A stretch of DNA of 64,000 nucleotides from an uncultured Gammaproteobacteria bacterium (GCA_964512695.1 CAZEJU010000001.1:7803-71802); one strand, 5' to 3'; positions 10,441 to 43,197 are shown, counted from the stretch's first letter. Notes: generated from the letters alone by a model not told the origin. Numbers and translations: made by a program.

Positions 10441-10720
10441 TTTCCTTTTGACTAACAGGATACAGCCAGGAAAAGTTAGAAGCTCAGTTGAAAAAAGAAA
10501 CAGACTTTGAAACGTTCTTTGTAAATGCACCGCGACTGAATCCCTCGCGATCTTTAATCAAAGGCGTGATTTGTGGCGTCCGAGTGGAGGATAGTAAAGA
10601 ACCAATTATGCGCGAAATTCGCTATCTAGATAAATTAATCGATGAGCTAGCTGGAGGGAAAACGATGGAAAAGATTTTACGAAGGTGATATCTTACTGCC
10701 TTAACTTTTCCCAGTCAGAG

Positions 10721-10791
10721 CTGGGAAGCCTGGATTCGAACCAGAATAAACGGATCCAAAGTCCGTTGTCCTACCATTAGACGACTTCCCA
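10721..10791 (-). tRNA. tRNA-Gln (anticodon UUG)
   Basis: Hand-folded cloverleaf. U1-A72 acceptor typical of bacterial tRNA-Gln, D-loop AAUGGUA, anticodon loop CUUUGGA, T-loop UUCGAAU, discriminator G. CCA is not encoded. Confidence 0.8.
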
Positions 10792-10798
10792 GCACTGA

Positions 10799-11050
10799 CT
10801 ACGAATTTTCCCTTGTTAAGATACTATCCAAATACTTTCTTCCTTGTCCAGTTTTTAAGAACTTTTCTCTTTTGACAGCTTCGCTTCTTGTATAAAACTG
10901 CTCTTGATAAATTAACTTCCATGGTTTTCTTCCTTTTGTATATCTAACTTTACCAGCATTGTGTGCAGCTAAGCGTATAGTTACATTTTCTGCACTTCCT
11001 ACATACCGCGTTCCATAGGTTATACTTTTCGGTACATATGCATACAACAT
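10799..11050 (-). CDS. GIY-YIG nuclease family protein (84 aa)
   Basis: MLYAYVPKSITYGTRYVGSAENV..RLAAHNAGK..YTKGRKPWKLIY matches the small GIY-YIG (UvrC N-terminal-like) family. Start trimmed to the Met just before the GIY motif. Confidence 0.7.
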   Translation of the reverse strand: MLYAYVPKSITYGTRYVGSAENVTIRLAAHNAGKVRYTKGRKPWKLIYQEQFYTRSEAVKREKFLKTGQGRKYLDSILTRENS

Positions 11051-11091
11051 AGTATGATTCTCCGCCGAAGGCGGATGCGCCTCTGGCGCAG

Positions 11092-11185
11092 AACCAGAAT
11101 AAACGGATCCAAAGTCCGTTGTCTCAGCCGGAGGCTGATCTGCCTCTGGCATGACTACCATTAGACGACTTCCCAACGCAAACTC
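11092..11185 (-). pseudogene. partial, disrupted second copy of tRNA-Gln (positions ~1-56) with a 31-nt palindromic insertion in the D-arm
   Basis: Direct repeats of tRNA-Gln sequence: 10739-10770 is repeated at 11092-11123 and 10771-10791 at 11165-11185. The insertion tcagccggaggctgatctgcctctggcatga separates them. Confidence 0.6.
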
Positions 11186-11367
11186 CAAGTTTATATTTTA
11201 AATACCATATCTAAATACTTCTTATATACCCATGAGTTTAAAGCCTTTCTCTCTTAGCGCTTTGCTTCTCATTTCTTCATTGTTCTTTATAAAGCAACAA
11301 CCATTCGATAACTTCAAATGAAAGTTAAAATTAACGCTCTGTTATTATAGCATTGAAAACCGTATAT

Positions 11368-12504
11368 CTAAAGGGTAGGGGAGCTAGCTTCAAAATATTT
11401 CTTCGCAGCGATAGTCCATAACTGAGGAGCATTGCCTTTCTTATGGACTTTAAATTCATCTACATGAAGTAACTCCGGAAAATCATGCAAGTAAGGAATA
11501 ATTCGTTCACAAACCTCCATTACATGCGGTAAATTAAACTTTTTCGCTCCAAGGTGAATAAATGCTTGTTCGAATGGCCAGACAGTATTCGTATGGTATC
11601 CATAATGGTGAGCTATATCATGTTGGAGAGAAATATCATGAGTACTTAATGTAAGATAACCTCGTTTCGTTTCTAAACTTTTAGTAGCTTCAACTATCTT
11701 TCTTACTTTTTCGGTTTTTATCTGATCAGGTTCAAGATAATATAAAATATGTAAGTTATCAGATGAAACACCGGGGAAAAAACCTTTTTGGTCCAGGCCT
11801 ATATGGAAAACTCCACGTTTATCATCAAAAAGAATAAATAAATGCTTATTCATCTCTTCAGCTTTCTTTTCTAAATCTTTCGCACCAAGAAGCCGAGCCG
11901 CACTTCGTAATGCTTTCATATTTTGGACATGTGCAAGTGTAAAAACTGCTGGATATGCTGGTATACCATGCTCGCGGTTGGAGATGTGCGAATCTTTCCA
12001 ATATGTAACCTTTAAAGCGTACCGTTTGGCATCGGCATATTTCGGATCTTCTACGAAAAGGTAATTAACCAGATGATGAAGGATATATGTTACTGCTTTT
12101 TCTAAATAATGGTGTTGTTTTTTAATGAAATAATCATCACCAGTCATATTAAGATATTCGTCATGACCAATAAGAAATAGTGCTGTCGTATCACATGCAT
12201 TATAATCAGTAGAATAGCCTTCTGTTAAAAATGGAGGCATTTCATGAAATATTTTTCCTGGCTCTTCACCTGTCTTTGAATCTTTTTTTGTTCCCTGCAA
12301 AAAGGAACAGTAAATTAATTGATCTCTCAGCATCTTCGCATCCCGCATCAAAATTGCAGAGAGAATTCCGTCCCTTGTAAAATTAGCTGGATAGCTGGGT
12401 AATCCTGCGCTATAGAGTGTTATATGGTTCAACTGGATTACTAATGAGTCAAGCGCTTCTTGAACAGTCATATGATGCTCGTGAAGAGGAGAGTGCTTAT
12501 ACAT
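11368..12504 (-). CDS. six-hairpin glycosidase-like protein (glycogen-debranching-enzyme C-terminal-like)
   Basis: 378-aa ORF. NFTRDGILSA...TTALFLIG resembles the GDE_C/alpha,alpha-toroid glycosidase family. The homology is weak. Confidence 0.3.
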   Translation of the reverse strand: MYKHSPLHEHHMTVQEALDSLVIQLNHITLYSAGLPSYPANFTRDGILSAILMRDAKMLRDQLIYCSFLQGTKKDSKTGEEPGKIFHEMPPFLTEGYSTDYNACDTTALFLIGHDEYLNMTGDDYFIKKQHHYLEKAVTYILHHLVNYLFVEDPKYADAKRYALKVTYWKDSHISNREHGIPAYPAVFTLAHVQNMKALRSAARLLGAKDLEKKAEEMNKHLFILFDDKRGVFHIGLDQKGFFPGVSSDNLHILYYLEPDQIKTEKVRKIVEATKSLETKRGYLTLSTHDISLQHDIAHHYGYHTNTVWPFEQAFIHLGAKKFNLPHVMEVCERIIPYLHDFPELLHVDEFKVHKKGNAPQLWTIAAKKYFEASSPTL

Positions 12505-12602
12505 AGTTCAATTGTATAGAAATGCAAGGAAGAAAAAAAGTAAGGTATTATACAACGAAGTAATGAAGCACAAGTTTTAGCAAGAACTATCTCTGGAGGA
12601 CT

Positions 12603-12690
12603 TTTGAGCGGGAGACGGGTAGTCCGATTAACATCGGACTCTCTTCTTTGAGCGGGAGACGGATAGTCCGATTAACATCGGACCCTCTTC
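12603..12690 (-). repeat. two tandem 44-bp degenerate copies of the 3' half of tRNA-Gly (T-arm replaced by a GUCCGAU..AUCGGAC hairpin)
   Basis: Units 12603-12646 and 12647-12690 are near-identical to each other and repeat the tRNA-Gly 3' end (...CCCGUCUCCCGCUCAAA). Confidence 0.6.
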
Positions 12691-12692
12691 TT

Positions 12693-12765
12693 TGAGCGGG
12701 AGACGGGTATCGCACCCGCGACCTCTTCCTTGGCAAGGAAGCATTCTACTGCTGAACTACTCCCG
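12693..12765 (-). tRNA. tRNA-Gly (anticodon GCC) with non-canonical D-loop (AGCAGUA, no G18G19) and T-loop (UGCGAUA)
   Basis: Cloverleaf closely parallels E. coli tRNA-Gly(GCC): acceptor GCGGGAG/CUCCCGC, anticodon loop UUGCCAA, discriminator U. Confidence 0.65.
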
Positions 12766-12846
12766 CAGTATCTCGCATTATAGCAAATTGACCTATAAAT
12801 AAAAAACCCCTTTACAAAATCATAAAATTTATCTTATCCTAAATAT

Positions 12847-13614
12847 GTGAAGAAAAAAATCAAGAGAAAAGTAGCCTCTAAAAAGAAACGAACTCCTATA
12901 GTACTTACCCGTACCCGATATATATTTATCGGGTTTGCAAGTGTCTGTCTTTTTCTTTTTAGCTTCTTACTGCTTAACCCAAAAACTGAAGAAAAGCATA
13001 GAGAATGCGCAAACTCCCTAAGCTGCGTAGATAATTTATCAGGTATCTACGAAGAAGACACGGTAGGTGTCTTCGCAGGGAGAAAAGTTAAAAGTCCACC
13101 AATAGCATCTCGACCATATATAAGAAACTTGTCTCAAAATATTACCCAGGCTAGTGTTCTCGGTGAAAATACTGATAGTAAACATATCTATGTGGATTTG
13201 ACTAATCAAAAGCTCTATGCCTTTGAGAATAATAGTCTCGTTTATGAATTCAAAGTATCCACAGGTAAACCATGGACACCTACCCCAACTGGTGATTTCC
13301 GCGTATGGATTAAATTGAAATATACCCGCATGAGAGGCGGAAGTGGTAGTGGATACTACGATTTACCAAATGTTCCCTATACTATGTTCTTTTATAACGA
13401 TAAAGTTGCTAAATCACGAGGATATGGGATTCATGGAGCGTATTGGCACGAGAATTTTGGATTTCCAATGAGTCACGGTTGCATTAATTTAGATGAACCG
13501 GATGCAGAGAAACTATATACTTGGGCTACACCCGTATCAGAAAAAAATACAGTGAATGCAACTGCAGAAAATCCTGGAACGCTCATTACTATCTATGGAG
13601 AAACACCAAAGTAA
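12847..13614 (+). CDS. L,D-transpeptidase (YkuD domain) protein
   Basis: YkuD catalytic motif ...HGAYWHENFGFPMSHGCINL. N-terminal membrane anchor. GTG start. Confidence 0.75.
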   Translation: MKKKIKRKVASKKKRTPIVLTRTRYIFIGFASVCLFLFSFLLLNPKTEEKHRECANSLSCVDNLSGIYEEDTVGVFAGRKVKSPPIASRPYIRNLSQNITQASVLGENTDSKHIYVDLTNQKLYAFENNSLVYEFKVSTGKPWTPTPTGDFRVWIKLKYTRMRGGSGSGYYDLPNVPYTMFFYNDKVAKSRGYGIHGAYWHENFGFPMSHGCINLDEPDAEKLYTWATPVSEKNTVNATAENPGTLITIYGETPK

Positions 13615-13620
13615 AGAATT

Positions 13621-13652
13621 TTCCATTTTCCACTTACCATTTGCCATTGATT
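13621..13652 (+). repeat. left arm of an imperfect inverted repeat flanking the four-helix-bundle gene (ttccattttccacttaccatttgccatt)
   Basis: The reverse complement of 14056-14088 aligns at ~75% with a shared ttccattttcca core. Confidence 0.5.
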
Positions 13653-13673
13653 TTTTAGTATAAAATTTATAGA

Positions 13674-14057
13674 TTGGACATAATGACATCTGATGAATTG
13701 TATAACCGGCTCCTTAATTTCGGTAGAGGTTGTCAAAAACATGTAAAAATGTTACCTAAAACAATTTATAACCTTGAATATGGAAGCCAACTTATTCGTT
13801 CTTCAGCATCAACCGATTCCAACTACATAGAAGCATTAGAAGCAGCTGGTTCGAAAGATTTTTGCTATAGGTTAAAAATCTGCAGAAAAGAGACAAGAGA
13901 ATCTAAGCATTGGTTGTATCTTCTTCTTAGTTCCAATCAAGAAATACAACATATTAATAATAATACTAAAGAACTATTATTAGAAGCATCAGAGCTAATT
14001 AGAATATTTACATCATCCATATTAACTTCTGAAAAAAATCAAAAAATGATTAAATAA
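13674..14057 (+). CDS. four-helix-bundle protein (23S rRNA intervening-sequence protein family)
   Basis: QLIRSSASTDSNYIEALEAAGSKDF..LKICRKETRESKHWLYLL matches the four-helix-bundle/IVS protein family. Confidence 0.65.
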   Translation: MDIMTSDELYNRLLNFGRGCQKHVKMLPKTIYNLEYGSQLIRSSASTDSNYIEALEAAGSKDFCYRLKICRKETRESKHWLYLLLSSNQEIQHINNNTKELLLEASELIRIFTSSILTSEKNQKMIK

Positions 14058-14088
14058 TGGAAAATGATACTTGGAAAATGGAAAATAA
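14056..14088 (+). repeat. right arm of the inverted repeat (aatggaaaatgatacttggaaaatggaaaataa)
   Basis: Inverted partner of 13621-13652. A near-identical copy lies at 46157-46189. Confidence 0.5.
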
Positions 14089-14874
14089 TTAGTGACAATA
14101 CCCCTTTTCACAAGCTGCTAATAATGTTCCTGTCGTATTGCCTCCATAATACCGTAAACCTTGTTCGACTCCACCATGTTTAGCAAGATAGTTTGCTGCA
14201 CCGTGGATGGCATCTACAGCATTATTAATATCAGCAATCCCGTCTCCATTTCCATCAACACCATAGGCATTCCATGTACCAGGCATAAATTGCAGAGGAC
14301 CTTGCGCGCCAGATCCTTGGGCATTATAAATAGCTCCATCACGTAAACCTGTTTCAGTTAAATGAAGGCCATAGAGAATTTGCCAAGGTACACCATATTT
14401 TTCCCCTGCTTGCTTATAAATTTCGTCATAGTTAGTTGGCTCACCCTGGGTAGGGAGAATAGGGGAGGGACTTGGGAGAGTCTCCACTTGCGTAATTTGT
14501 GCTGAAAAATTTGTTTTATCTTCTTTATTTGATGCTTTTATAGAATTTTTAAGCAAACTTGCTAGTTTATCTGCCGGTATTTTGGCAACCAGGAGTGGTT
14601 TTTGTAAGGTAATGATTATTTTACTTCCTTCTGGCAAAACATTTGGATTGTTTATTTGAGGGTTATCTAACCAAATGTTCGTCCAGTAATCTTTACTCCC
14701 ATAATACTGTTGGGCCAAATCAGTTATAGTTTGTTGGGAAGAAACAACAAACTCTACCTCTGTAGGATAAAAAATAACAGGATAGGTAAAAGCGTAATAG
14801 TTAGGCTGTGAAAATAACGAGAATATAAAATATCCAAGGGCAGCGAGGGTATTTCCTAATACACCTTGCGTCAT
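14089..14874 (-). CDS. lytic transglycosylase (SLT domain) protein
   Basis: C-terminal GVPWQILYGLHLTETG..GAQGPLQFMPGTW is an SLT-domain signature with a catalytic Glu. N-terminal membrane anchor. Confidence 0.7.
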   Translation of the reverse strand: MTQGVLGNTLAALGYFIFSLFSQPNYYAFTYPVIFYPTEVEFVVSSQQTITDLAQQYYGSKDYWTNIWLDNPQINNPNVLPEGSKIIITLQKPLLVAKIPADKLASLLKNSIKASNKEDKTNFSAQITQVETLPSPSPILPTQGEPTNYDEIYKQAGEKYGVPWQILYGLHLTETGLRDGAIYNAQGSGAQGPLQFMPGTWNAYGVDGNGDGIADINNAVDAIHGAANYLAKHGGVEQGLRYYGGNTTGTLLAACEKGYCH

Positions 14875-15005
14875 AATTGGGGAAATTCAACTATAGTGAA
14901 TTTCTATCGTGGAATTTTAACAATGTTCTTCTATCCTGTCAATAAAACTAATGACATATTACGTGTTTCTTACCCTAATCCATGATGTATGACAAGAGAA
15001 CTAAG

Positions 15006-15078
15006 TGCCGAGGATGTGAGTTGAACACATATCTGATGTTCTTCAGACACCCGCCGTGACCACCTTGGCTACCTCGGC
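15006..15078 (-). tRNA. tRNA-Phe (anticodon GAA)
   Basis: Hand-folded: acceptor GCCGAGG/CCUCGGC, anticodon loop CUGAAGA, T-loop UUCAACU, discriminator A. There is one D-stem mismatch. Confidence 0.65.
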
Positions 15079-15219
15079 TAATCGAACGAAACTATTGAAA
15101 CTAAGCTGTAACTGCTCTTAACTTATCCTGTATCATATTATAGCAAACGCTAAACGCATAGTGTAGATTGAAATTAGCAAGATGTGGTAAGGAGATTTTA
15201 TGAATGATATACTTGAGTA

Positions 15220-16203
15220 ATGGAATTGAAGCGCTACGCAGGCAATCCAATCCTCACCAAAAATCCGAAAAATCATTGGGAAGCAGGATCAGTACTTAAC
15301 CCGAACGTTCTTTACGATAATGGACTGTTCCGAATGGTTTACAGGGCTACAAATGACATTAAAACCGATGAGGATGGAGGGTATGTTTCGTCCATTGGTT
15401 ATGCAGAAAGTATTGATGGAATCCACTTTACTCGCTTCCCTCAGCCTCTTTTAGCACCTGATAAAGAGTATGAACTTAACGGGGGATGCGAAGATGCACG
15501 CGTGACAAAAATTGGGGATACGTATTTTCTCTATTATACCGCTTGCCACGTCGATAACGGAAAATGGAAAGTAAGAATAGCTTTAGCGACTAGTAAAGAT
15601 TTTAAGAACTGGAAAAAGCATGGGATTGTTGGCCCGCAGCACACAAAGTCAAAAGCGGCATGTCTTTTTCCTGAAAAAATAAACGGTAAATACACAATGC
15701 TTTATACATGGAAATCCGACAGTCCACTTTCCTCAATTATGCTTGCGCAATTTGAGACTTTGCAAGAAGTAATAAAACCTCCAAAAGGATTTATGGCAGA
15801 CAATATTGACCATTATCAAGATAATGTTGTATTTGAACCTCCGAAACCAGTATATCGTGGGGCAGAGGTCGGAGCTGTACCAATAAAAACAAAGGATGGT
15901 TGGCTCTTTATTTATTGCAATGCCAATGTATCCAATCATCCAGAATGGACTATTAATGCAGCGCTTCTTGACGTACATGACCCACGAAAGATATTGGCAG
16001 AAACAGAAAAGCCTCTTCTCAGACCCGAAACAGAGACAGAATTGAAAGGTGTGGTAAATAATGTCACATTTCCTGAAGGTGCAGCAGTTGTTGGTGATGA
16101 GTTATATGTTTACTATGGAAGTGGAGATCAGGGATGCTGTCTTGCGACCTGTAGTTTCAGCGAACTCATGAAGTATCTTACCTCGCGGATTCCTCGAAAA
16201 TAA
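15220..16203 (+). CDS. GH130-like glycosidase/phosphorylase (five-bladed propeller)
   Basis: NPIL...AGSVLNPNVLYDNGLFRMVYRA...GYAESIDGIHF...GGCEDARV..YFLYYTA resembles the GH130/GH43-like family. Confidence 0.5.
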   Translation: MELKRYAGNPILTKNPKNHWEAGSVLNPNVLYDNGLFRMVYRATNDIKTDEDGGYVSSIGYAESIDGIHFTRFPQPLLAPDKEYELNGGCEDARVTKIGDTYFLYYTACHVDNGKWKVRIALATSKDFKNWKKHGIVGPQHTKSKAACLFPEKINGKYTMLYTWKSDSPLSSIMLAQFETLQEVIKPPKGFMADNIDHYQDNVVFEPPKPVYRGAEVGAVPIKTKDGWLFIYCNANVSNHPEWTINAALLDVHDPRKILAETEKPLLRPETETELKGVVNNVTFPEGAAVVGDELYVYYGSGDQGCCLATCSFSELMKYLTSRIPRK

Positions 16204-16407
16204 ATTTATGTGGTTACCGTTATCGCTCACTACAGCCGTTGTTCTCTCTACGTATTTCTTTCTTAATAAACAACAAATAAAAACTGTTTCAATCTACACC
16301 AGCTTCAGCAAAGAAAAAAGTCTGTTTACAATTATGCCTACAATAATGATTACAATTATGTGAATTGGAGAAAACTATGTGGGTAGCACGAACAAGTATG
16401 GTTATTG

Positions 16408-16481
16408 TGGACGATTAGGGACTTGAACCCCAGACCTCTTCAGTGTAAATGAAGCGCTCTAGCCAGCTGAGCTAATCGTCC
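16408..16481 (-). tRNA. tRNA-Val (anticodon UAC)
   Basis: Cloverleaf: GGACGAU acceptor, D-loop AGCUGGCUA, anticodon loop UUUACAC, T-loop UUCAAGU, discriminator A. Confidence 0.8.
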
Positions 16482-16485
16482 AGTG

Positions 16486-16569
16486 TGCGGATGAGAGGAC
16501 TCGAACCTCCACGCTTTTTACGGCACTACCACCTCAAGGTAGCGTGTATACCAATTTCACCACATCCGC
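16486..16569 (-). tRNA. tRNA-Leu (anticodon GAG), class II with long variable arm
   Basis: Acceptor GCGGAUG/CAUCCGC, anticodon loop UUGAGGU, T-loop UUCGAGU, discriminator A. Confidence 0.75.
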
Positions 16570-16674
16570 GTAAAAGCAAATAGCCTATGGCTAATAGCTT
16601 ATGGTTTGAAAATTATACCAAAATCTTCTTCCGCAAGCTATTAGCTATATATCCTTAGCCATTTGCTATTTTTG

Positions 16675-16756
16675 TGCCCTGAGGGAGACTCGAACTCCCA
16701 CGGCTTTCGCCACTACCTCCTGAAGATAGCGTGTATACCAATTTCACCATCAGGGC
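16675..16756 (-). tRNA. tRNA-Leu (anticodon CAG), class II
   Basis: Acceptor GCCCUGA/UCAGGGC, anticodon loop UUCAGGA, variable-arm hairpin GGCGAAAGCC, T-loop UUCGAGU, discriminator A. Confidence 0.75.
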
Positions 16757-16936
16757 AATTCTGGACTCATTCTAACAAATGGCTGTAGAGGAAACAACAG
16801 AAAGTATCATATGAAATTATAAACTAGTAAAAAATTCACAAAGAAGATATCGAAGCTTAATTTTTACAGAGTGCGTGTGATTACCTACAATAGCCATTCA
16901 ACTTGACATTCTCAACTGTATCTGTAAATATGAAGA

Positions 16937-17521
16937 TTGATGAGAAAGGTTATACTGCTCATAACGTTTTCAATAATCTCACCCTCGCTGTTGATCTTCA
17001 GCCTTTTATTCTATCTTTTTCTATCTTACCATGGAGATACAACAACGTACGCAAACGCCCGGAAGGCAGCTCTCACACGCACCTATGCAGCTTTACCTCG
17101 TAAAAACGCTATAACAACTGATTCTATTACTATCGAAGAGGGCAGAGTAGAAATAGTAAGGCAATTTTTAGCTAAATATAAATCTCCACTTGAGGAACAT
17201 GCAGCATTTATAGTAAAAATTGCTGATAAATACGGGTTAGATTTTAGGCTAATTCCCGCTATTTCCATGCAAGAATCAAATGCTTGCAAAAAAATTCCTA
17301 AAGATTCATATAACTGCTGGGGATTTGGCATATATGGAGGCAAAGTAACGAGGTTTACTGACTATCCTGAGGCTATTGAAATTGTTACAAAAACTTTAGC
17401 CACAAAATACAGAAAGAAGGGCCTAATAACCCCAGAAGAGATTATGACTATGTATACACCCTCAAGTCCGAATGGTAGTTGGGCAAAAGGCGTTTCGCAC
17501 TTCATGGAAGAACTCCAATAA
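16937..17521 (+). CDS. secreted lysozyme-like/transglycosylase-like domain protein
   Basis: N-terminal TM/signal segment. Conserved core LIPAISMQESNACK..NCWGFGIYGG is shared with the paralog at 17737. Confidence 0.4.
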   Translation: MMRKVILLITFSIISPSLLIFSLLFYLFLSYHGDTTTYANARKAALTRTYAALPRKNAITTDSITIEEGRVEIVRQFLAKYKSPLEEHAAFIVKIADKYGLDFRLIPAISMQESNACKKIPKDSYNCWGFGIYGGKVTRFTDYPEAIEIVTKTLATKYRKKGLITPEEIMTMYTPSSPNGSWAKGVSHFMEELQ

Positions 17522-17736
17522 CTTCTGTAGTCAATTTTTCAGCTATTTGCTTATTGCTTAGATACAGGCTAGCCAGATTGCAAGACTAACCACCTGATAT
17601 GCCTTAATCCTATAGCAAACTACTTGACAAACCTATAGTTTAGTGATACAATCCACATCATGTACCTCGGCTAAAACTCCAAACTTTTGGCTGGGGTATA
17701 TTTTTACCAATATTTTAAATACTATAAGATTAAATT

Positions 17737-18279
17737 ATGAAGATTTTTTTAACTTTATTATTCTTTATTTTTCTTTCTACAGTACCTGCTTATGCTGAGA
17801 CTACAGCAGGAGCTTCTGCTATGCTTGTTCCTCAAAATATACCTTTTAAACAGGCTGATAAGAGAATACAAGTACTCAAGTCATATTTTAAAAAATATAA
17901 TTCTCCTTTAGAAAATGACGCTTCAGTTTTCATCGAAGTTGCTGATAAATATGATATTGACTATAGGATTTTACCGGCTATCGCTGGAGTAGAATCTGGT
18001 TTTGGAAAATTCATTCCATATAACTCTTTTAATGGTTGGGGATGGGGTATTTATGGTGGTAAAGTAACATATTTCTCATCATGGGAAGAAGCGATTCAAA
18101 CCATCTCTAAAGAATTACGGGAACGATATATGGATAAATGGGGAGCAAAAAATGTCTATGATATTGGTAAATATTATGCTTCAGATCCAGCATGGGCATA
18201 TAAAGTAAATAGGTTTATGGAAGATATTGAGAACTTTGCGCAGGAAAAAGAAGACAAAGCTATTTCCATTTCTATCTAA
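17737..18279 (+). CDS. secreted paralog of the 16937 protein
   Basis: Signal peptide. ILPAIAGVESGFGK..NGWGWGIYGG core shows ~40% identity to the upstream paralog. Confidence 0.4.
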   Translation: MKIFLTLLFFIFLSTVPAYAETTAGASAMLVPQNIPFKQADKRIQVLKSYFKKYNSPLENDASVFIEVADKYDIDYRILPAIAGVESGFGKFIPYNSFNGWGWGIYGGKVTYFSSWEEAIQTISKELRERYMDKWGAKNVYDIGKYYASDPAWAYKVNRFMEDIENFAQEKEDKAISISI

Positions 18280-18309
18280 ATAGATTATAATTAGCTAAAC
18301 TGTCTATGC

Positions 18310-18392
18310 GCGGATGTGGTGGAATGGTAGACACGTAAGGTTTAGGACCTTATGGCCGCAAGGCTGTGGAGGTTCAAGTCCTCTCATCCGCA
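18310..18392 (+). tRNA. tRNA-Leu (anticodon UAG), class II
   Basis: Acceptor GCGGAUG/CAUCCGC, anticodon loop UUUAGGA, variable-arm hairpin GGCCGCAAGGCUG, T-loop UUCAAGU, discriminator A. Confidence 0.8.
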
Positions 18393-18423
18393 CTCATACG
18401 CGCACTATATCGCATGCAATACT

Positions 18424-21554: not shown

Positions 21555-23063
21555 ATGGCGCGTAAAATACCAGCAACAATGGTCTCACAACATCCTGATA
21601 ATGCGAGTAAACCGTACTGGCATACGGAAGAATTTATTAGCACCCAACATGAAACATTTGAATGTTTCTTATCTTTCTCTGAACTTGGTGTCTCTGAATA
21701 TAAATGGGATTGGGAAGGAAAGCTCGTAGATGAGTCTATTATGGAACGGCTTTTTAGCCAGTATTATGAATTTTTTAAGACAAATCCACTAGGTTATAGC
21801 AAATTTCTCACATTCCGTCTTCCAAACCCAAAAGTAGAAACAGAATTCCGTATAGGGCGCGCTTTCATGGGTATTCTCAGTGCGGATATGTTAGCTCGTC
21901 AGCTTGGATTCTACAGTCCCTCCTTATTTGAAGTAATCTTACCAATGACAGAGTCAGCGCAAGAGATGATAGAAATTCAAGAAGCTTTTCGCGAAATGAG
22001 TGGATTAAAACATAAATTATATCGCATGGCAGATAAATCTCTTCGTCATATCGAATTGATTCCCTTATTTGAAGATGTACATACGATAATTAACTCTGCA
22101 AATATTCTCGAACAGTATATTAAACTTCACAAAAAGAAATTTAAATTTTTACCTTCATATATAAGGCCGTACATCGCTCGTTCTGATCCAGCATTAAACG
22201 CAGGAATTGTGCCTACGGTACTTGCAGCAAAAATCGCTCTTTCAAGATACAAAGCATTTTCAGAAAAAACTGGCATTCCTTTATATCCCGTTATAGGCTC
22301 TGCATCCTTACCGTTTCGCGGAGGGCTTACACCAGTAACTGTCGAAGCGTTTGCTAACGAATATAAAGGAGTCCGAACAGCTTTGCTCCAGAGCGCATTC
22401 CGATATGATTATGATAAAAATGTCGTTAAACAGGCAGTGGAACAGCTTGAAAAATTACTTCCTTCAAATAGTGCAATTTCAATACCCCAAAAAGACGAAA
22501 AAGTTATGATCGAGCTTATTAACTTATTCGAGGGATATTATAAACCTACTATAGAACAATTAGCAGATAAGATAAACGCAGTAGCCACATCTCTACCTCG
22601 CAGAAGAGAACGAGTGCAGCATGTGGGTTTATTCGGGTACTCAAGGGGTGTCGGAAAAGTAAAACTACCACGAGCCATAGGGTTTACCGCCGCTATGTAC
22701 TCACTGGGTATTCCTCCAGAAATAATAGGCACGGGACGAGGCATAAAAGAAGCAAAGGAACGCGGACTTCTGCCAGTACTCGAAAAGTATTATGTTAATC
22801 TACAAGCTGATCTCACTCGAGCAGGGAAATACGTTAATAAACCAGCAATTAAAAAACTCGCGAAAACTGATACGACATGGAATGATGTTTTAACAGATAT
22901 AACGGAAATCGAAAAATTCCTTAAGATAGCACTTGAACCTGAGACAGAAGAAGAGAAACAACATAAAACCATTACGGATGATATTACGAAGAAACTTGCT
23001 GCTGAGGAATCTATAGCAAAACTCATAGAACAAGCAGCAGTACTCCGAAAAAGTTTAGGATAG
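21555..23063 (+). CDS. phosphoenolpyruvate carboxylase, archaeal type (PpcA-like, ~500 aa)
   Basis: N-terminal IPATMVSQHPDNASKPYWH and overall length match archaeal-type PEPC. Confidence 0.5.
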   Translation: MARKIPATMVSQHPDNASKPYWHTEEFISTQHETFECFLSFSELGVSEYKWDWEGKLVDESIMERLFSQYYEFFKTNPLGYSKFLTFRLPNPKVETEFRIGRAFMGILSADMLARQLGFYSPSLFEVILPMTESAQEMIEIQEAFREMSGLKHKLYRMADKSLRHIELIPLFEDVHTIINSANILEQYIKLHKKKFKFLPSYIRPYIARSDPALNAGIVPTVLAAKIALSRYKAFSEKTGIPLYPVIGSASLPFRGGLTPVTVEAFANEYKGVRTALLQSAFRYDYDKNVVKQAVEQLEKLLPSNSAISIPQKDEKVMIELINLFEGYYKPTIEQLADKINAVATSLPRRRERVQHVGLFGYSRGVGKVKLPRAIGFTAAMYSLGIPPEIIGTGRGIKEAKERGLLPVLEKYYVNLQADLTRAGKYVNKPAIKKLAKTDTTWNDVLTDITEIEKFLKIALEPETEEEKQHKTITDDITKKLAAEESIAKLIEQAAVLRKSLG

Positions 23064-23770: not shown

Positions 23771-23821
23771 ATGCATTATATAAAAGTTGAAAACATGATG
23801 GCAATGATGATGACTTCCTAA
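23771..23821 (+). promoter_or_regulatory. Met-rich leader peptide ORF (MHYIKVENMMAMMMTS; five Met in the last eight codons)
   Basis: ATG CAT TAT ATA AAA GTT GAA AAC ATG ATG GCA ATG ATG ATG ACT TCC TAA begins ~7 nt after the predicted TSS. Its stop abuts an antiterminator arm, ggaggt at 23823-23828. Confidence 0.55.
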
Positions 23822-23852
23822 CGGAGGTGTATCACGTGCTGTTTGTGAACGA

Positions 23853-23875
23853 CCTCCTTACTAGGAGGTTTTTTT
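23853..23875 (+). terminator. intrinsic terminator CCTCCTtactAGGAGG + T7 (attenuator terminator; 3' arm doubles as SD)
   Basis: Perfect 6-bp GC-rich stem followed by seven T. The upstream ggaggt can alternatively pair with acctcc. Confidence 0.6.
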
Positions 23876-23886
23876 ATTGTAAAAAT

Positions 23887-24684
23887 ATGTTTGTGACCAT
23901 TATTAACGACTGTACAGATCATAACGTAATAGGAAGGCAACTAACCAGAGCAGCTGTCTTATTTTACGCGCCTGTTATTCCGGTTGGGGTTCACAACGAG
24001 TTAGAAGCTGCCGGAAACCTCATAGATGTTCTCGATGCTGCAGAAAAGGGAAAAGGAGTAATCATTCTGAATGTCGCACCCCGACATGGTAACGCGAAAA
24101 AGTGGCCGAATGGAACACCATTTGCGTACTTTAACGTCAATAATATACTTATTATAGCCACAATAGATGGCTACTCCTTGTCTCTTATAAAAAAACTCAG
24201 GATAATAGATTCCGTGAATCTCCTTGATATTCCTGATGTAGTTAACAGGATGCAAGAAGAACATGTCATTTCTTCAGAACTACGAGATCAAATCATTCAT
24301 ACGCAATTTCGAAGTTTCGAGTTCGCTCCCCGCGTAGCAAAGTGGCTGACCGAAAGAATAGAAATCCCCAGCACACCGTATGCTTTATCCCAAGTTCCTG
24401 ATGTACCAAAAGCTATATGGTATATCGATAATTTCGGAAACTGTAAAACCACACTCCTACCAGAAGATGTAAACTTCCAGGCAGGCAAAAAAGTTCATAC
24501 GGAATTAGGTGAGTTAGCTTGCTATAACAGATTAAAAGATGTCCCTGATGGAAAAACAGCTCTTATCATTGGTAGTTCAGGTTATAAAGATAAACGATTT
24601 ATCGAGTTAATAATCCAAGGTAAAAGCGCAGCACAGATATATGGTCTGCAAGTCGGATCATTAATCATAAATACTATTGGTTAA
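23887..24684 (+). CDS. SAM hydroxide adenosyltransferase family protein (DUF62; SalL/FlA fluorinase-chlorinase fold)
   Basis: N-terminal VTIINDCTD..; C-terminal IDNFGNCKTTL... closely parallels the fluorinase motif IDHPFGNVWTNI. Confidence 0.65.
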   Translation: MFVTIINDCTDHNVIGRQLTRAAVLFYAPVIPVGVHNELEAAGNLIDVLDAAEKGKGVIILNVAPRHGNAKKWPNGTPFAYFNVNNILIIATIDGYSLSLIKKLRIIDSVNLLDIPDVVNRMQEEHVISSELRDQIIHTQFRSFEFAPRVAKWLTERIEIPSTPYALSQVPDVPKAIWYIDNFGNCKTTLLPEDVNFQAGKKVHTELGELACYNRLKDVPDGKTALIIGSSGYKDKRFIELIIQGKSAAQIYGLQVGSLIINTIG

Positions 24685-24794
24685 ATTCGACACTACAGAA
24701 ATAACATTTATGGGAATTAAGATTACCATATTAAAAAATAACAGAAAAATACCTCAATGCCTGGACTAAAGGAATCTCGCATTACCGGCTATTA

Positions 24795-24823
24795 TTGACA
24801 AGCTCAGGCTGATAAGGTAAAGT
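24795..24823 (+). promoter_or_regulatory. sigma70-like promoter TTGACA-N17-TAAAGT
   Basis: Read directly from the sequence. Confidence 0.5.
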
Positions 24824-24828
24824 ATGGA

Positions 24829-25107
24829 AAGAATCAAGAGTGATGGGGAGACCCCAGTCTGATCTTCCTTTTCGCCTTAGTAGATTTCTACTTCGGCTTA
24901 AAGAGCGATCTTACCGGGGCGGGAGTTTTGGCTTCATGATCCATCCGGCAACCCTTCGGTAAGTTCAAACAATGCTTGAACAACGAGCAGGGTGCCAAAC
25001 CCAACCCAAGAGATGTGCTACCGAGTACATCTTCGTAAAGGAGGATTTGATCCTGAGACAATCGAAGGATAAACTATGTATTACCTCTCTTTACGAGAGG
25101 TTTTTTT
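24829..25107 (+). ncRNA. SAM-I (S-box) riboswitch with enlarged P3 and terminator expression platform
   Basis: Conserved S-box blocks AUCAAGAG (24833-40), CCGGCAACC (24945-53), GGUGCCAA (24981-88) and AGAGAUG. The P1 3' strand AAGAGA can alternatively pair with the UCUCUU 5' arm of the terminator 25084-25107. Confidence 0.6.
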
Positions 25108-25113
25108 ATTTAT

Positions 25114-26868
25114 ATGGCTAAAGAAGGTGAAATAAAAGGCACATATCAGTTTAGTATAGATGGCCCTCAGCTGACCAGTGACGATATACAGAGGAAGTTC
25201 CCTGGTGTCAAAAATAATGGTCATCTCGGAAAGACTGGTGTAGTACTACATGATACAGCAATTCCTATCGCAGCTATCCGACATCCTCGACTTATACCTA
25301 CGCGGTTAGATGGAATTATACCTGTGTTTGGTGGCCCCCAAACACACAGTAAAATAGAGCATATCCGTATCCGACCAGCTGGTGGCTCAGAAGCGAAAAG
25401 AATAGCAAAAGCAGTCCGTGGAACAACCCCAACACTCGGACCAGAAGCAGAAGCATTTGTACATAACAGAAGAACAGGCAGACTTGTACCTACATTTAAA
25501 GGAAAACAAATTGAAACACAAAAAGCACTGAGAGAAGATGCACTTGGACATACGGGATCGCTTGAAGAACACATCGTAGCATCTGCTAAATTTACAGTTT
25601 TTAGAGCTAATCAAGAGCGCAGACGAGGACGTATCGCAGTTGAAACAAGTGTTCCTATAACCTATGGTGAAGGTAAAGATGCTCGAGATAGTGAAGGTCT
25701 CGCAGGTAGTGAAAATCCATATATTGTGGCTATGACACATCTGTTCCCTGAAAATATGCTCCCTACAGAGAAGCTTGATCCACAAGTTGCAAGCGTTTTA
25801 AATCAATACGCTCTTCGCCATGGGTTTGCGACTATTTCTGATATGACCAGCGCTCTCGGTCTTAACCGCACCTGGCACATGGCTGCAAGCCATCTGAGTC
25901 TTGGTCTACCGCAGGAACAACAACCAGATGGGAAATATATTACTTCTACTGAGATCGCGATAGGAGTTATGAATGTATTTATGAGTGACCTTAATATTTC
26001 GCATATGTTTACTCATGGAACACCTATGCTAGGCGGACAATTAGTAGATGTTCCAGCACGAAATCGTCAATCAGAACATGTGGCCTCAAATCAACCGTTA
26101 CGGGATGTACGACTTGGTGCATTTAAGCATATGTTAGGCACTGCTTATCCTGGCCCGCTTATCGCGAATGAAGAAGATCTCTATGATCGCTGGAGAAAGA
26201 TTGTTATTCCAGGGAAAGCCGCGACTGTAGATCGAGCATCGGCAATTAGTATAGCACCAAATGGAGAAATCTATGCCTCAATGCATGCACGGGCTCGTCT
26301 TCGTGTGGGAGGTGATCCCACAAAACAAACTGTACGAGTCGAATCAGTAGGAGATAGCGCTACACCTTCACGCTACGACTTAATAGCGCGTGACGCGTAT
26401 CTAGTAATGTTATGGAACGGTGCTATGGAGGCAATGGCAAAAGGAAAAACCCCACAAGATTTCTGGGGGGGAAATTATCCAGCAATAACTGACTGGAAAA
26501 AGCAGCAGGAAGCGACATTAGGATTTTCTGTTAATGGACCAGCGAATAGGGAAGCACATGTGCTGATTGAACAAAACCTGGGGTTTTTACGTGATATGAA
26601 AGCTCTCCAACCTACATTAGGTACGTACATCGATTATGTAACAGCACGTATTCGTAATTTTAGTAGACCGACAAAAGCACACACACTCGATGAGTATACA
26701 ACAGATCCATCAGGTAGCATAAGCGAGGTAATTCGACGCATGAAAGAAACCGGATATAAAGATGATGAAATCGTGCGAGCTATTGACACACATCAAACTG
26801 CAGTATCACGAAGAGTTGTTCAAGTTCATGGAGATTTTAAAGCGCTTCTACAAGATGTACAAAAGTAA
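25114..26868 (+). CDS. hypothetical 584-aa protein under SAM-riboswitch control
   Basis: Long ORF with coding-like composition and no recognisable motif. Confidence 0.4.
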   Translation: MAKEGEIKGTYQFSIDGPQLTSDDIQRKFPGVKNNGHLGKTGVVLHDTAIPIAAIRHPRLIPTRLDGIIPVFGGPQTHSKIEHIRIRPAGGSEAKRIAKAVRGTTPTLGPEAEAFVHNRRTGRLVPTFKGKQIETQKALREDALGHTGSLEEHIVASAKFTVFRANQERRRGRIAVETSVPITYGEGKDARDSEGLAGSENPYIVAMTHLFPENMLPTEKLDPQVASVLNQYALRHGFATISDMTSALGLNRTWHMAASHLSLGLPQEQQPDGKYITSTEIAIGVMNVFMSDLNISHMFTHGTPMLGGQLVDVPARNRQSEHVASNQPLRDVRLGAFKHMLGTAYPGPLIANEEDLYDRWRKIVIPGKAATVDRASAISIAPNGEIYASMHARARLRVGGDPTKQTVRVESVGDSATPSRYDLIARDAYLVMLWNGAMEAMAKGKTPQDFWGGNYPAITDWKKQQEATLGFSVNGPANREAHVLIEQNLGFLRDMKALQPTLGTYIDYVTARIRNFSRPTKAHTLDEYTTDPSGSISEVIRRMKETGYKDDEIVRAIDTHQTAVSRRVVQVHGDFKALLQDVQK

Positions 26869-35982: not shown

Positions 35983-36100
35983 GGGTAATATTATATATTA
36001 TAGGATCTAATTCACACAAGCATACGGGTCGGTATTTTCCAGCACAGTTATTTATTAAGCAGTTTGTAATATTAGGAAGACTATTGTAGTTAGTAAAGTG

Positions 36101-36174
36101 TGGGGCCAAGTGGACTTGAACCACTGACCTTTTCAATGTCAATGAAACGCTCTAGCCAACTGAGCTATGGCCCC
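36101..36174 (-). tRNA. tRNA-Val (anticodon GAC)
   Basis: Acceptor GGGGCCA/UGGCCCC, D-loop AGUUGGCUA, anticodon loop UUGACAU, T-loop UUCAAGU, discriminator A. Confidence 0.8.
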
Positions 36175-37202: not shown

Positions 37203-37247
37203 ATGAAATCCACTTTTTTAGTTTGTTGTGTTACAACTCTGCTTTAA
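37203..37247 (+). promoter_or_regulatory. leader peptide ORF MKSTFLVCCVTTLL (tandem Cys-Cys, Thr-Thr, Leu-Leu)
   Basis: ATG AAA TCC ACT TTT TTA GTT TGT TGT GTT ACA ACT CTG CTT TAA. Its stop abuts GGGG of the antiterminator, which pairs with CCCC of the terminator. Confidence 0.45.
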
Positions 37248-37274
37248 GGGGTTGTAGTTATCGTGGAATATGCA

Positions 37275-37296
37275 CCCCGCCAAGCGGGGTTTTTTT
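37275..37296 (+). terminator. intrinsic terminator CCCCGCcaaGCGGGG + T7 directly abutting the start codon
   Basis: 6-bp GC stem, 3-nt loop, 7 T, then ATG at 37297. Confidence 0.6.
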
Positions 37297-38289
37297 ATGA
37301 GAAACTTATTAGAATTAGGAATTTTCGAAACATACGGAAATGGTGGAGGAGCAATTACCAAAGATAGAGTATCTCCTCCTATTTATCCAGTAGATGCTAA
37401 TTTAGGTGAATGGAGGATACTAGCAACTGATCATGAAAGAGAATTCCCGGGCGAGCATCTCGAACGTGCTTTTGAAGTGATAAAGCAATGGCAGGAAGTA
37501 TTTCCTCGGGAAGATACCTGGATTAATCGTGCGTATGGTATTCCGTCACCGATTATTAAACTCGATGCAACAATTACTAATAATGAATTACAGGTGTATG
37601 AAGTAGAAGATAGACCAGCAGGAATGGGTTATAGCGAATTAATAAATCCTGACTTACGAACAAATTTTGCTGATATTGTATCTACTTGGCCAGATTTCCG
37701 AGTCGTCGTTTCTCCTCAAAGATCTGGAAATGACGATCATTTATGGGCAAAGCCAGCAGAAGCAGATTGGCATGGTCTAGTTCTCGTCCGGGCAGAACCG
37801 TCTGAAGAAGAATTCCATGCATTACAGCGAAGATCCATAAGTACTCTGCTTACAGAAGGAGACAAATCGTATGGTGAAAAAATGGGTTTATGGAAAAGAG
37901 TTCATACAGCAGATGAGATAGATTTTTCACAAGGTTTTGTCGTCAAGCCCACCCAAGGAAGCAAAGGGAATGGTGTGTATGTATCTTTACCGAAACAATA
38001 CATGAAAGAACATGGGATCGACCCAGGTAGAAATGGCGTAGCTACTGCAGGGAAAATACGAGGTGTAATCGATACTGCAGCAGCAAATGGAGGAGTCTTC
38101 GTACAACAATATCATCCTCCTATGGAAACAGGTATCCCGACCCATCCCTGGGCAGTAAACCGGTTATTCTTCGGGTATGATATGCAAAATGGAGAATGGA
38201 GATATATAGGGGGAACATGGAATGCTCGAAATAATTTGAAAATTCATGGAGCTAGTGATACATTAACTGGCCCGTTAAAAACGGTATAA
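37297..38289 (+). CDS. ATP-grasp-like protein
   Basis: FVVKPTQGSKGNGVYVS and ELQVYEVEDRPAGMG motifs, though in an unusual order. Start placed after the terminator T-run. Confidence 0.35.
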   Translation: MRNLLELGIFETYGNGGGAITKDRVSPPIYPVDANLGEWRILATDHEREFPGEHLERAFEVIKQWQEVFPREDTWINRAYGIPSPIIKLDATITNNELQVYEVEDRPAGMGYSELINPDLRTNFADIVSTWPDFRVVVSPQRSGNDDHLWAKPAEADWHGLVLVRAEPSEEEFHALQRRSISTLLTEGDKSYGEKMGLWKRVHTADEIDFSQGFVVKPTQGSKGNGVYVSLPKQYMKEHGIDPGRNGVATAGKIRGVIDTAAANGGVFVQQYHPPMETGIPTHPWAVNRLFFGYDMQNGEWRYIGGTWNARNNLKIHGASDTLTGPLKTV

Positions 38290-38390: not shown

Positions 38391-38438
38391 ATGAATATCA
38401 TGAATAACAATGGAGCAGTAAAGAAGAACCTCTCGTAA
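38391..38438 (+). promoter_or_regulatory. Asn-rich leader peptide ORF (MNIMNNNGAVKKNLS; 5 Asn, including NNN)
   Basis: ATG AAT ATC ATG AAT AAC AAT GGA GCA GTA AAG AAG AAC CTC TCG TAA. The 3' end overlaps the hairpin CCUCUCguaaGAGGGG, whose 3' arm can pair with the CCCCUUAC of the terminator. Confidence 0.55.
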
Positions 38439-38469
38439 GAGGGGTCTTTCTGTTGTCTGCACAATAGTA

Positions 38470-38492
38470 CCCCTTACAGAAGGGGTTTTTTT
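38470..38492 (+). terminator. intrinsic terminator CCCCTTacagAAGGGG + T7
   Basis: Followed by the tiny ORF MDFLLNQ (38493-38516), then a ~100-nt spacer carrying a GGAGG SD before the 38616 start. Confidence 0.6.
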
Positions 38493-41106: not shown

Positions 41107-41154
41107 ATGAGTAAATCAGTTTTCGGAACTACCACTACAACAACCCTTTCCTAA
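41107..41154 (+). promoter_or_regulatory. Thr-rich leader peptide ORF (MSKSVFGTTTTTTLS; six consecutive Thr codons)
   Basis: ATG AGT AAA TCA GTT TTC GGA ACT ACC ACT ACA ACA ACC CTT TCC TAA. Its stop abuts GGGAGGUUG (41155-63), which pairs with CAACCUCC (41180-87), the 5' arm of the terminator. Confidence 0.6.
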
Positions 41155-41182
41155 GGGAGGTTGGCGTGGTATTATTTAACAA

Positions 41183-41204
41183 CCTCCTTAATAGGAGGTT
41201 TTTT
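41183..41204 (+). terminator. intrinsic terminator CCTCCTtaatAGGAGG + T6
   Basis: Perfect 6-bp stem plus a T-run. A ~118-nt spacer follows before the 41323 start. Confidence 0.55.
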
Positions 41205-43107: not shown

Positions 43108-43197
43108 GTACAAAGATGCAAGGTTCTACCGTAGTTCTCTGTAACATAAGATCTTCGTAACTATGCAACTATTCGCAGGTATGTTATAGTACAGCTT

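Follow-up and report, generated by a model that had tools for sequence, protein, structure and literature searches.

A putative SAM-I-like leader with an extra P2 arm upstream of a predicted carboxylate-amine ligase gene in an uncultured Gammaproteobacteria bacterium

We analysed a 64,000-nucleotide (nt) stretch of DNA from an uncultured Gammaproteobacteria bacterium (the window), in which a 429-nt gap (24685–25113) separates a gene for a DUF62/SAM-hydroxide-adenosyltransferase, a hydrolase of S-adenosylmethionine (SAM), from an open reading frame (ORF) for a 584-amino-acid (aa) protein. The initial annotation had placed a SAM-I (S-box) riboswitch in this gap, acting as an OFF switch on the 584-aa gene. 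That reading was right in kind and wrong in anatomy, and formal membership of the SAM-I family failed. We favour, with a probability of roughly 0.6, the reading that the leader represents a new and rare form of SAM-I superfamily aptamer, in which P2 resembles a k-junction and P4 is optional, and that it controls by termination an operon for a ligase of glutamate-cysteine ligase (GCL) fold within a methionine/SAM regulon. Idea and direction of a SAM-responsive, S-box-type transcriptional OFF switch survive from the initial annotation, most of its helix assignments do not. New support comes from the discovery of a homologous leader and its conservation, from covariation, from gene context and from a covariance-model (CM) alignment made without filters.

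The leader and its homologue

Only five relatives of the 584-aa protein were found in an index of 5.8 billion proteins, and the closest (P0002, 67% identity), on contig L001, is preceded by the same leader, with the same terminator. The two copies are identical at 153 of 178 aptamer positions (86%), including 20 of 21 from P1 to P2a, 23 of 25 in P2b and the kink-turn 3' strand, and 9 of 10 in J3/4, with 92–95% identity in the core blocks. The adjacent ORF has 66% DNA identity overall and 46% at third codon positions, and the 100 alignment columns upstream of the leader have 33 of 62 ungapped positions identical. Selection on the aptamer is therefore strongly purifying when compared with neighbouring neutral sites (86–95% vs 46%). 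The substitutions that separate the copies concentrate at the tips of hairpins and preserve pairing by compensation, with two compensatory pairs in the tip of the extra arm (AG/CU to UC/GA) and one in distal P3 (U-A to C-G). Pattern scans that covered 596 Gb of species-representative genomes together with Joint Genome Institute (JGI) metagenomes revealed no further copy of the long-P2 leader.

A sigma-70-type promoter has its −10 hexamer ending 8 nt upstream of GAAUC, which would place the transcript start at about 24829–24830, that is at P1; the predicted operon leader is 24829–25113. In L001 the promoter (TTGAAA-17-TACAAT) lies at the same distance of 8 nt from GAAUC. The features of the locus are as follows, where L002 is a further contig with a homologue of the 584-aa protein.

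23887–24684: DUF62/SAM-hydroxide-adenosyltransferase (SAM hydrolase) gene; the true start is the ATG at 23887, not the GTG at 23827
24699–24785, + strand: frameshifted relic of the 3' end of ahcY (S-adenosylhomocysteine hydrolase), between the DUF62 gene and the leader promoter
24795–24823, + strand: sigma-70-type promoter TTGACA-17-TAAAGT, 10 of 12 consensus matches
24831–35 and 24836–41, + strand: P1 5' strand GAAUC and J1/2 AAGAGU (consensus uAUcaAGAG; L001 CM alignment; covaries with L002)
24842–47 and 24848–49, + strand: P2a 5' strand GAUGGG and the 5' G-A of a tandem G.A
24850–24921, + strand: extra arm, a CCCC/GGGG stem with a long imperfect hairpin (24861–24910), between the kink-turn G-A and P2b
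24922–24935, + strand: P2b-like hairpin GGAGU-UUUG-GCUUC (window CM alignment; RNAfold prediction)
24936–24946, + strand: kink-turn 3' strand, with bulge AU, G-A (24938–39), P2a 3' strand UCCAUC (24940–45) and C (consensus uaUGAAgCCcC)
24947–24996, + strand: P3, GGCAACC...GGUGCC, carrying bulged A24951 and, on the 3' side, a bulge of 2 nt; its distal helix is extended (Rfam consensus; CM alignments)
24997–25006, + strand: J3/4, AAACCCAACC (consensus AAuuCCug; CCAA at 25001–04 is the candidate pseudoknot partner)
25007–25035, + strand: hairpin at the SAM-I P4 position, in the window only (10 bp, −11.9 kcal/mol; 29 nt, absent from L001)
25033–44, + strand: UCGUAAAGGAGG, which comprises J4/1 and the first nucleotide of the P1 3' strand (GAUUU, 25044–48) and is the predicted 5' strand of the anti-terminator
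25050–25070, + strand: hairpin B, AUCCU-GAG...UCGA-AGGAU, with a possible tandem G.A, conserved and immediately 3' of P1
25083–25107, + strand: intrinsic terminator with a 7-bp stem, a loop in the CUUUA region and a T7 run, conserved in L001
25114–26868, + strand: 584-aa ORF (ATG at 25114)

A minus-strand ORF of 57 aa (24888–25061) was judged to be probably non-coding: the 29 nt by which window and L001 differ fall inside it and, not being divisible by 3, would put its reading frame out of register.

Anatomy of the predicted aptamer

On direct reading, the block ATCAAGAG is present at 24833–40 and CCGGCAACC at 24945–53, as initially annotated, AAGAGATG lies at 25008–15, and GGTGCCAA, which had been placed at 24981–88, lies 10 nt further on at 24991–98. 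The S-box blocks do stand in the right order and spacing, far beyond chance in our pattern scans. The three-block pattern matched 10 sites in the genomes (596 Gb) and 8 in the JGI metagenomes. Among the genome matches two were bona fide SAM-I riboswitches, as were two of the metagenome matches (a single sequence seen twice); these have a second ATCAAGAG upstream, and the remaining matches were due to chance. This puts the chance rate at about eight matches in 596 Gb, equivalent to about 1e-6 for a stretch of 64 kb.

A custom SAM-I CM was built from five Rfam-verified aptamers (75–91 bits in Rfam) and run with all filters off; a scan of viral contigs served only to harvest SAM-I reference sequences. 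Its best match in the window (24908–25051, 13.0 bits) has the highest score anywhere in the 64 kb, both strands counted, the next reaching 8.3 bits, and its best match in L001 is 291–485 (14.1 bits); both matches lie on the + strand and cover the full model length. For true SAM-I the scores are 89 bits with seed sequences and 48 bits with a truncated sequence from outside the seed. The L001 alignment runs through P1, AAGAG, UGAUGG, a 96-nt local insertion, AUCC-GGCAACC, GGUGCCA and GGAGGAUUUGAU, and the window alignment takes GGGAGUUUUGGCUUC-AUGA as P2b and kink-turn 3' strand; the anatomical model combines the two. In it P1, P2a and P3 of the SAM-I four-way junction can form, with compensatory changes in P1, P2a and distal P3, and with the P4-position hairpin in the window only.

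Ligand-pocket elements of SAM-I are predicted to be kept in the leader, namely P1, J1/2 AAGAG, P3 GGCAACC/GGUGCC with its bulged A, J3/4 and the tandem G.A of P2. As in SAM-I (RF00162, clan CL00012), P1 runs into J1/2 (AUCAAGAG), where the consensus uAUcaAGAG corresponds to AAUCAAGAG in the window (24831–35 and 24836–41; Rfam consensus line), and predicted tandem G.A kink-turn strands flank P2a. The consensus uaUGAAgCCcCgGCAACC corresponds to CAUGAUCCAUCCGGCAACC (24935–53), and ggggAaGGUGCcAAuuCCug to CGAGCAGGGUGCCAAACCCAA (24984–25004), so that P3 GGCAACC/GGUGCC, with its bulged A and two-nucleotide 3' bulge, and J3/4 AA..CC are shared. The 3' 'Aa' bulge of P3 agrees in position with the Rfam consensus, one pair from its exact place, and the distal pair 24964/24980 covaries (U-A to C-G). 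The gAU of the consensus is found as GAU within GGAGGAUUU (25044–46) in the P1 3' strand; P1 would be GAAUC/GAUUU (24831–35/25044–48).

Two P1 A-U pairs of SAM-I read the sulfonium of SAM. Under the structural mapping, 21 of 23 highly conserved SAM-I nucleotides (U4, A6, U7, G11, A12, G19, A20, G21, A24, C31, G35, A36, G43, C44, A45, C47, G56, U57, G58, C59, A61, A87 and U88; PMC3764141) are identical in both window and L001, the two mismatches being U4 to G and A24 to U. Those kept include the G11/C44/G58 triple, A45/U57, A6-U88, U7-A87 and the G.A pairs 35-20 and 36-19.

The leader differs from SAM-I in P2. The initial annotation had placed about 75 extra nt in P3, which proved to be only moderately extended; the large insertion (about 72–85 nt) belongs to P2. 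Both G-A dinucleotides of the tandem pairs (24848–49 with 24938–39) and the bulge stand at consensus positions, the G-A is invariant and the bulge AU is GC in L001, while P2b is not contiguous with the kink-turn and an arm of about 72 nt occupies the non-bulged strand. This arm (72 nt) is absent from canonical SAM-I, is not repeated elsewhere and is identical in L001 at 62 of 72 positions (86%). GAUC-containing direct repeats occur at 24861–68 (GAUCUUCC), 24907–15 (GAUCUUACC) and 24938–46 (GAUCCAUCC), and AAGAG[U/C]GAU is duplicated (24836–44 and 24901–09), which suggests that the arm arose by internal duplication. The P2 kink-turn may be k-junction-like, with the extra arm between its two strands. 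RNAfold, with only P1 and P3 enforced, returned the proposed P2 architecture for the window and chose P2a (GAUGGG/UCCAUC). In L001 the SAM-I-like fold lies within 0.5–2 kcal/mol of the minimum free energy (MFE). Unconstrained MFE and RNAalifold folds, which disagree from one copy to the other, did not enter the model.

A k-junction is a kink-turn elaborated into a three-way junction, as in the thiamine pyrophosphate (TPP) riboswitch (PMC4005666). The leader's predicted version is atypical in its loop length (2–3 nt) and in the closing pair of its C-helix, and comes from secondary structure. To our knowledge, no k-junction has been described in SAM-I. The P2b loop of the leader is UUUUGG, unlike AcuGG in SAM-I, and its UUGG (24928–31) could pair with CCAA (25001–04) at the SAM-I pseudoknot position (4 bp, −2.7 kcal/mol); both strands are invariant in the two copies and so provide no covariation. 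P1 further differs in having only 5 bp and in beginning at the transcript 5' end, and P4 is dispensable, being present in the window and not in L001. Two other pairings were rejected: UGGGG-AGA-CCCCA as P2b, since its 3-nt loop is unfit for a pseudoknot, it excludes P2a and L002 covariation favours GAUGGG/UCCAUC; and the second AAGAG (24901–05) as J1/2, as it has no AUC before it and a poor P1 partner.

A second divergent aptamer was found in L002 (2438–2566), between the gene for a 580-aa homologue and metK, where the custom CM gives 15.8 bits and Rfam SAM-I/IV 21.3 bits, below its gathering threshold of 41.1. It has a non-canonical P2 interior and was not picked up in an earlier 40-kb scan. 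Its P1 and P2a pair at window-equivalent positions through two both-side changes each (P1 from G.U/A-U to U-A/U-A; P2a from G-C/G-C to A-U/A-U, with one G.U to G-C), which argues that the base of P2 in the window has covariation support. Aptamers of the SAM clan that fall below threshold thus appear to be a property of this poorly sampled lineage.

In other respects the leader resembles SAM-I/IV (RF01725) and SAM-IV (RF00634). In the L001 copy no P4 intervenes between P3 and P1, which leaves a three-way junction, a conserved hairpin (hairpin B) stands immediately 3' of P1 at the P4 position of both classes, and the L002 metK aptamer is best matched as SAM-I/IV. The predicted tandem G.A kink-turn elements set the present leader apart, as we know of no SAM-I/IV or SAM-IV class with a kink-turn. 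By inspection we found no complementarity for the second pseudoknot of these classes (P3 loop with 3' tail), and neither RF01725 nor RF00634 matched the window or L001. The 3' half of hairpin B (25061–68, AUCGAAGG) can also pair with the P3 5' strand (24953–60, CCUUCGGU) in a conserved 8-bp helix X (−11.9 kcal/mol in the window, −14.1 in L001), which has one compensatory change in L001 (U-A to C-G) and cannot form together with P3, hairpin B or the anti-terminator.

Termination control and the regulated operon

The initial annotation correctly described the terminator ACCTCTCTTTACGAGAGGT at 25083–25101 with a T7 run ending 6 nt before the ATG at 25114. Its helices around this element did not hold: AGAGAUG, taken as P1 3' strand, falls within the 29-nt hairpin (25007–25035) that is missing from L001, the sole homologue, and the AAGAGA/UCUCUU anti-terminator, whose pairing yields a mere −4.1 kcal/mol, is buried within this same hairpin (−11.9 kcal/mol) and unconserved, its segment being absent from L001. 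Instead, UCGUAAAGGAGG is complementary to the terminator 5' arm and loop, with a conserved duplex to 25084–25096 of 12 bp in the window (−16.4 kcal/mol, 0 of 1000 shuffles as good) and 10 bp in L001 (−11.6 kcal/mol, 16 of 1000 shuffles as good). The terminator hairpin has −9.7 kcal/mol in the window and −10.7 in L001, and it forms when the aptamer is enforced in folding. Like SAM-I, the leader combines a terminator with a predicted anti-terminator ahead of genes linked to methionine/SAM, and the bacterium uses promoters of sigma-70 type; it differs in that J4/1 (9–10 nt) bears the anti-terminator, instead of the P1 3' strand itself. The terminator 3' arm GAGAGG is likely also the Shine-Dalgarno sequence of the 584-aa ORF. 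An 11-bp helix (24861–71 with 25037–47) was rejected as a sequestor (−12.6 kcal/mol in the window vs −5.3 in L001, where a C-to-A change breaks it).

We propose that binding of SAM would close the weak 5-bp P1. As a closed P1 encloses the anti-terminator strand in its loop, it would exclude the anti-terminator as a nested structure; J4/1 (UCGUAAAGGAGG) would be locked inside the junction, the terminator (25083–25101) would form and transcription would stop before the ATG. Without SAM, P1 would be open and J4/1 could pair with the terminator 5' arm and loop (12 bp, −16 kcal/mol), giving read-through. This would follow the usual S-box logic, in which SAM closes P1 and leads to termination.

The regulated protein had been described as lacking a recognisable family, which holds at sequence level and not at the level of structure. 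Pfam and NCBIfam gave no match at E ≤ 10 for any of 6 family members, nor for 10 distant members; PF04107 (GCS2), PF04262 and PF00120 sequence models matched neither the 584-aa protein nor its relatives, and a 43-sequence profile had no sequence match in the PDB. An exhaustive profile search recovered 79 cluster representatives (about 80 among 1.8 billion proteins), a word-indexed profile search added nothing, and ten residues are invariant in the 43-sequence alignment (G109, E111, E113, E134, E141, P304, R374, R395, R408 and E410). The AlphaFold2 (AF2) model reached a mean predicted local distance difference test (pLDDT) of 94.6 with this alignment, vs 48 with 6 sequences. Foldseek against the PDB found E. 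coli GshA (gamma-glutamylcysteine synthetase; E 2e-7, probability 1.00) and YbdK (target-normalised template-modelling (TM) score 0.69); next came plant GCL, GshF and yeast GCL, and after them glutamine synthetases of types III and I and PafA. At E ≤ 1e-3 there were 25 matches, the first 24 being GCL/YbdK/GshF and the 25th a type III glutamine synthetase. These matches point to an enzyme with the ATP-dependent carboxylate-amine ligase fold.

Compared with the GCL, YbdK (GCS2) and glutamine synthetase families, the protein shares the predicted fold (Foldseek probability 1.00 to GshA, YbdK, plant GCL and GshF) and an invariant Glu/Glu/Glu/Glu/Arg/Arg/Arg-x-Glu set with near-invariant His residues, which would suit a metal-ATP site. 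It differs in sequence (about 10–12% identity), in extra N- and C-terminal domains (TM score only 0.35–0.44 over the query), in its methionine/SAM control (threonine for a paralogue) and in its pairing with M20 peptidases.

The link of the regulated gene to methionine/SAM that had been suggested is supported by gene context. Homologues of the 584-aa gene adjoin ahcY and homocysteine S-methyltransferase (L001), metK (L002) and msrB (L029), and the gene associates with homologues of the window's 493-aa protein and 619-aa protein (the latter a weak YbdK match), M20 peptidases and DUF3182. This operon (GCL-fold ligase, 493 aa, YbdK-like 619 aa, M20 peptidase and DUF3182) would most likely act in methionine/homocysteine supply. 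In L001 the end of an ahcY gene, a contig-truncated fragment (PF05221 AdoHcyase, E 5e-4), lies just upstream of the homologous leader; the ahcY relic in the window (24699–24785) aligns locally with L001 28–116 with a score of 78, vs a maximum of 43 in 500 shuffles.

Three homologues of the 584-aa gene are preceded by leader peptides of methionine codons. The mini-ORFs are MMMATFLWEACRFTKK (L002, 530–625), MMMQTFLGEACCFIKQ (L004, 731–826) and MMTV (L027, 4909–4965), each ending in a stop codon. An intrinsic terminator lies downstream of every one of them, and an alternative anti-terminator can pair in its place; the Shine-Dalgarno sequence of the L027 mini-ORF is overlapped by the anti-terminator strand. 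In L002 and L004 the leader peptides contain MMM, with 1:2, 2:3 and 3:4 hairpins. These would switch the genes on when Met-tRNA is scarce, in agreement with the OFF-by-SAM direction proposed here. The DUF62 gene of the window also has a methionine-codon leader peptide (MMAMMMTS and a stop codon, 23795–23821, within an element at 23795–23870), with hairpins ACUUCC/GGAGGU and GGAGGU/ACCUCC and a terminator at 23851–23870. A literature search for attenuation by methionine-codon leader peptides found nothing.

Elsewhere in the window (41107–41200) a threonine-codon leader peptide (MSKSVFGTTTTTTLS and a stop codon) with a terminator at 41181–41200 precedes the gene for a 594-aa ligase paralogue, matched by hhalign with 100% probability (E 2e-97); threonyl-tRNA synthetase (ThrRS) comes next, in the region 41323–44937. 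Paralogues of the 584-aa ligase family are thus wired to different amino-acid sensors.

Weighing the SAM-I reading

Several results weigh against placing the leader with SAM-I. At the gathering threshold, Rfam 15 detected only eight tRNAs in the window. With permissive filters, SAM, SAM-IV, SAM-I/IV and T-box models gave no match at E ≤ 10 over 24600–25300, 24826–25056 or the homologous L001 interval (701, 231 and 205 nt), so that the SAM-clan models fail even on the isolated aptamer. The initial annotation had named a scan with RF00162 as its check, and failure to score as its refutation, which is formally what happened; the leader has an Rfam score below roughly 13 bits, where the gathering threshold is 44.4 bits. 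Even the custom CM gives only 13–14 bits (E about 0.15 when the whole window is searched). Within the model, P1 is very weak (5 bp, −1.6 kcal/mol), the kink-turn bulge is 2 nt (3 with a G.U at the C-stem), the 72-nt arm splits the 5' G-A from P2b, and the SAM-I-like fold of the window lies 10.5 kcal/mol above the MFE. The conserved helix X is left unexplained, and, as the anti-terminator shares a single nucleotide with P1, its exclusion by P1 is a topological argument. Lastly, only two nearly identical leader copies are known, so the P2 junction, P2b, pseudoknot and kink-turn geometry have no covariation of their own. The only recurrent weak Rfam matches were to C/D-box small nucleolar RNA (snoRNA) models on GUGAUGG...UCUGAUC; a snoRNA identity was dropped, as these matches reflect kink-turn-type box C/D motifs and the two segments pair otherwise.

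These results bear differently on the alternatives. The SAM-I-derived aptamer may have changed what it senses, answering to another metabolite of the methionine cycle, such as S-adenosylhomocysteine (SAH), or to a second input on the extra arm (protein, tRNA or second ligand), with the terminator logic as described. We consider this unlikely. The P2 architecture is grossly altered, with the pocket-shaping pseudoknot parts, P2b and its loop, replaced; the Rfam models fail completely; the ancestral position is directly downstream of ahcY; the arm itself is conserved (62/72); and one SAM-I riboswitch is reported to respond to uncharged initiator tRNA as well (PMC7270179). Every canonical SAM-contacting nucleotide is nevertheless kept, including the two P1 A-U pairs, and the homologues are induced by methionine-codon attenuators, which fits ordinary methionine/SAM feedback.

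Decay is the second alternative: a non-functional S-box relic that binds no ligand, with a terminator that is constitutive or otherwise regulated, would account for the missing Rfam match, the very weak P1, the gain or loss of P4 between copies and the small number of copies (two). It is improbable given the purifying selection on the aptamer (86–95% identity vs 46% at neighbouring neutral sites), the compensatory changes in three helices, and the conservation of both promoter spacing and anti-terminator.

An unrelated structured leader, either a new riboswitch class or a protein-binding attenuator, which resembles SAM-I by chance or convergence, would be expected to be invisible to the family CMs, and thermodynamic folds do favour other pairings in the window. 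We give it a similarly slim chance, however, since 25 consensus bases in three blocks stand in the right order and spacing, with an expected chance frequency of about 1e-6 in 64 kb, the AUGA...CC of the kink-turn 3' strand immediately precedes CGGCAACC, the P3 3' bulge is at its consensus position and the leader is located in a methionine/SAM regulon. A T-box leader, first considered from a short resemblance in the AGGGUGCC block, has next to no chance of being correct, as the Rfam scans exclude it (no match at E ≤ 10), no arrangement of specifier loop and T-box sequence is present and that block is the P3 3' strand, which settles an ambiguity left by the initial annotation.

The SAM-I-variant reading can be taken further, more tentatively. 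The leader might be the founding example of a new SAM-clan subclass, with a k-junction P2 and conserved arm, and its operon a new enzymatic route of methionine/homocysteine supply or salvage, with paralogous ligases tied to other amino acids (as for the threonine-attenuated paralogue beside ThrRS); we regard this combination as possible rather than probable. If true, SAM-I would gain a new architectural solution in the arm inserted at the kink-turn, which would also be a candidate site for a second input and informative on how the P2 pseudoknot scaffold can be rebuilt. A SAM-clan aptamer invisible to the family CMs also means that riboswitch censuses would miss such regulons in poorly sampled lineages. 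Three sensors appear to converge on one protein family, namely a SAM-like riboswitch, methionine-codon leader peptides and, for the paralogue, a threonine-codon leader. This convergence flags an uncharacterised family of GCL-fold ligases as amino-acid-supply enzymes, whose substrate can now be searched for.

The host context is bacterial, with a bacterial-type PheT carrying an FDX-ACB domain in the window and a bacterial MetK in L002; sigma-70-like promoters and intrinsic terminators were found throughout. Amid this otherwise bacterial context the window encodes an archaeal-type phosphoenolpyruvate carboxylase (21555–23063, PF14010). Eight tRNA genes (Gln, Gly, Phe, Val, Leu ×3 and Val) lie at 10720–18393 and 36100–36174, mostly single and on both strands. 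Two further candidate leader-peptide attenuators were observed. One (37203–37290) encodes MKSTFLVCCVTTLL and a stop codon, with two Cys codons, and has a terminator at 37274–37290 followed by an ORF at 37297. The other (38391–38486) encodes the Asn-rich MNIMNNNGAVKKNLS and a stop codon, has terminator-like hairpins at 38428–45 and 38469–86, and precedes an ATP-grasp gene (38616) and an M20 peptidase.

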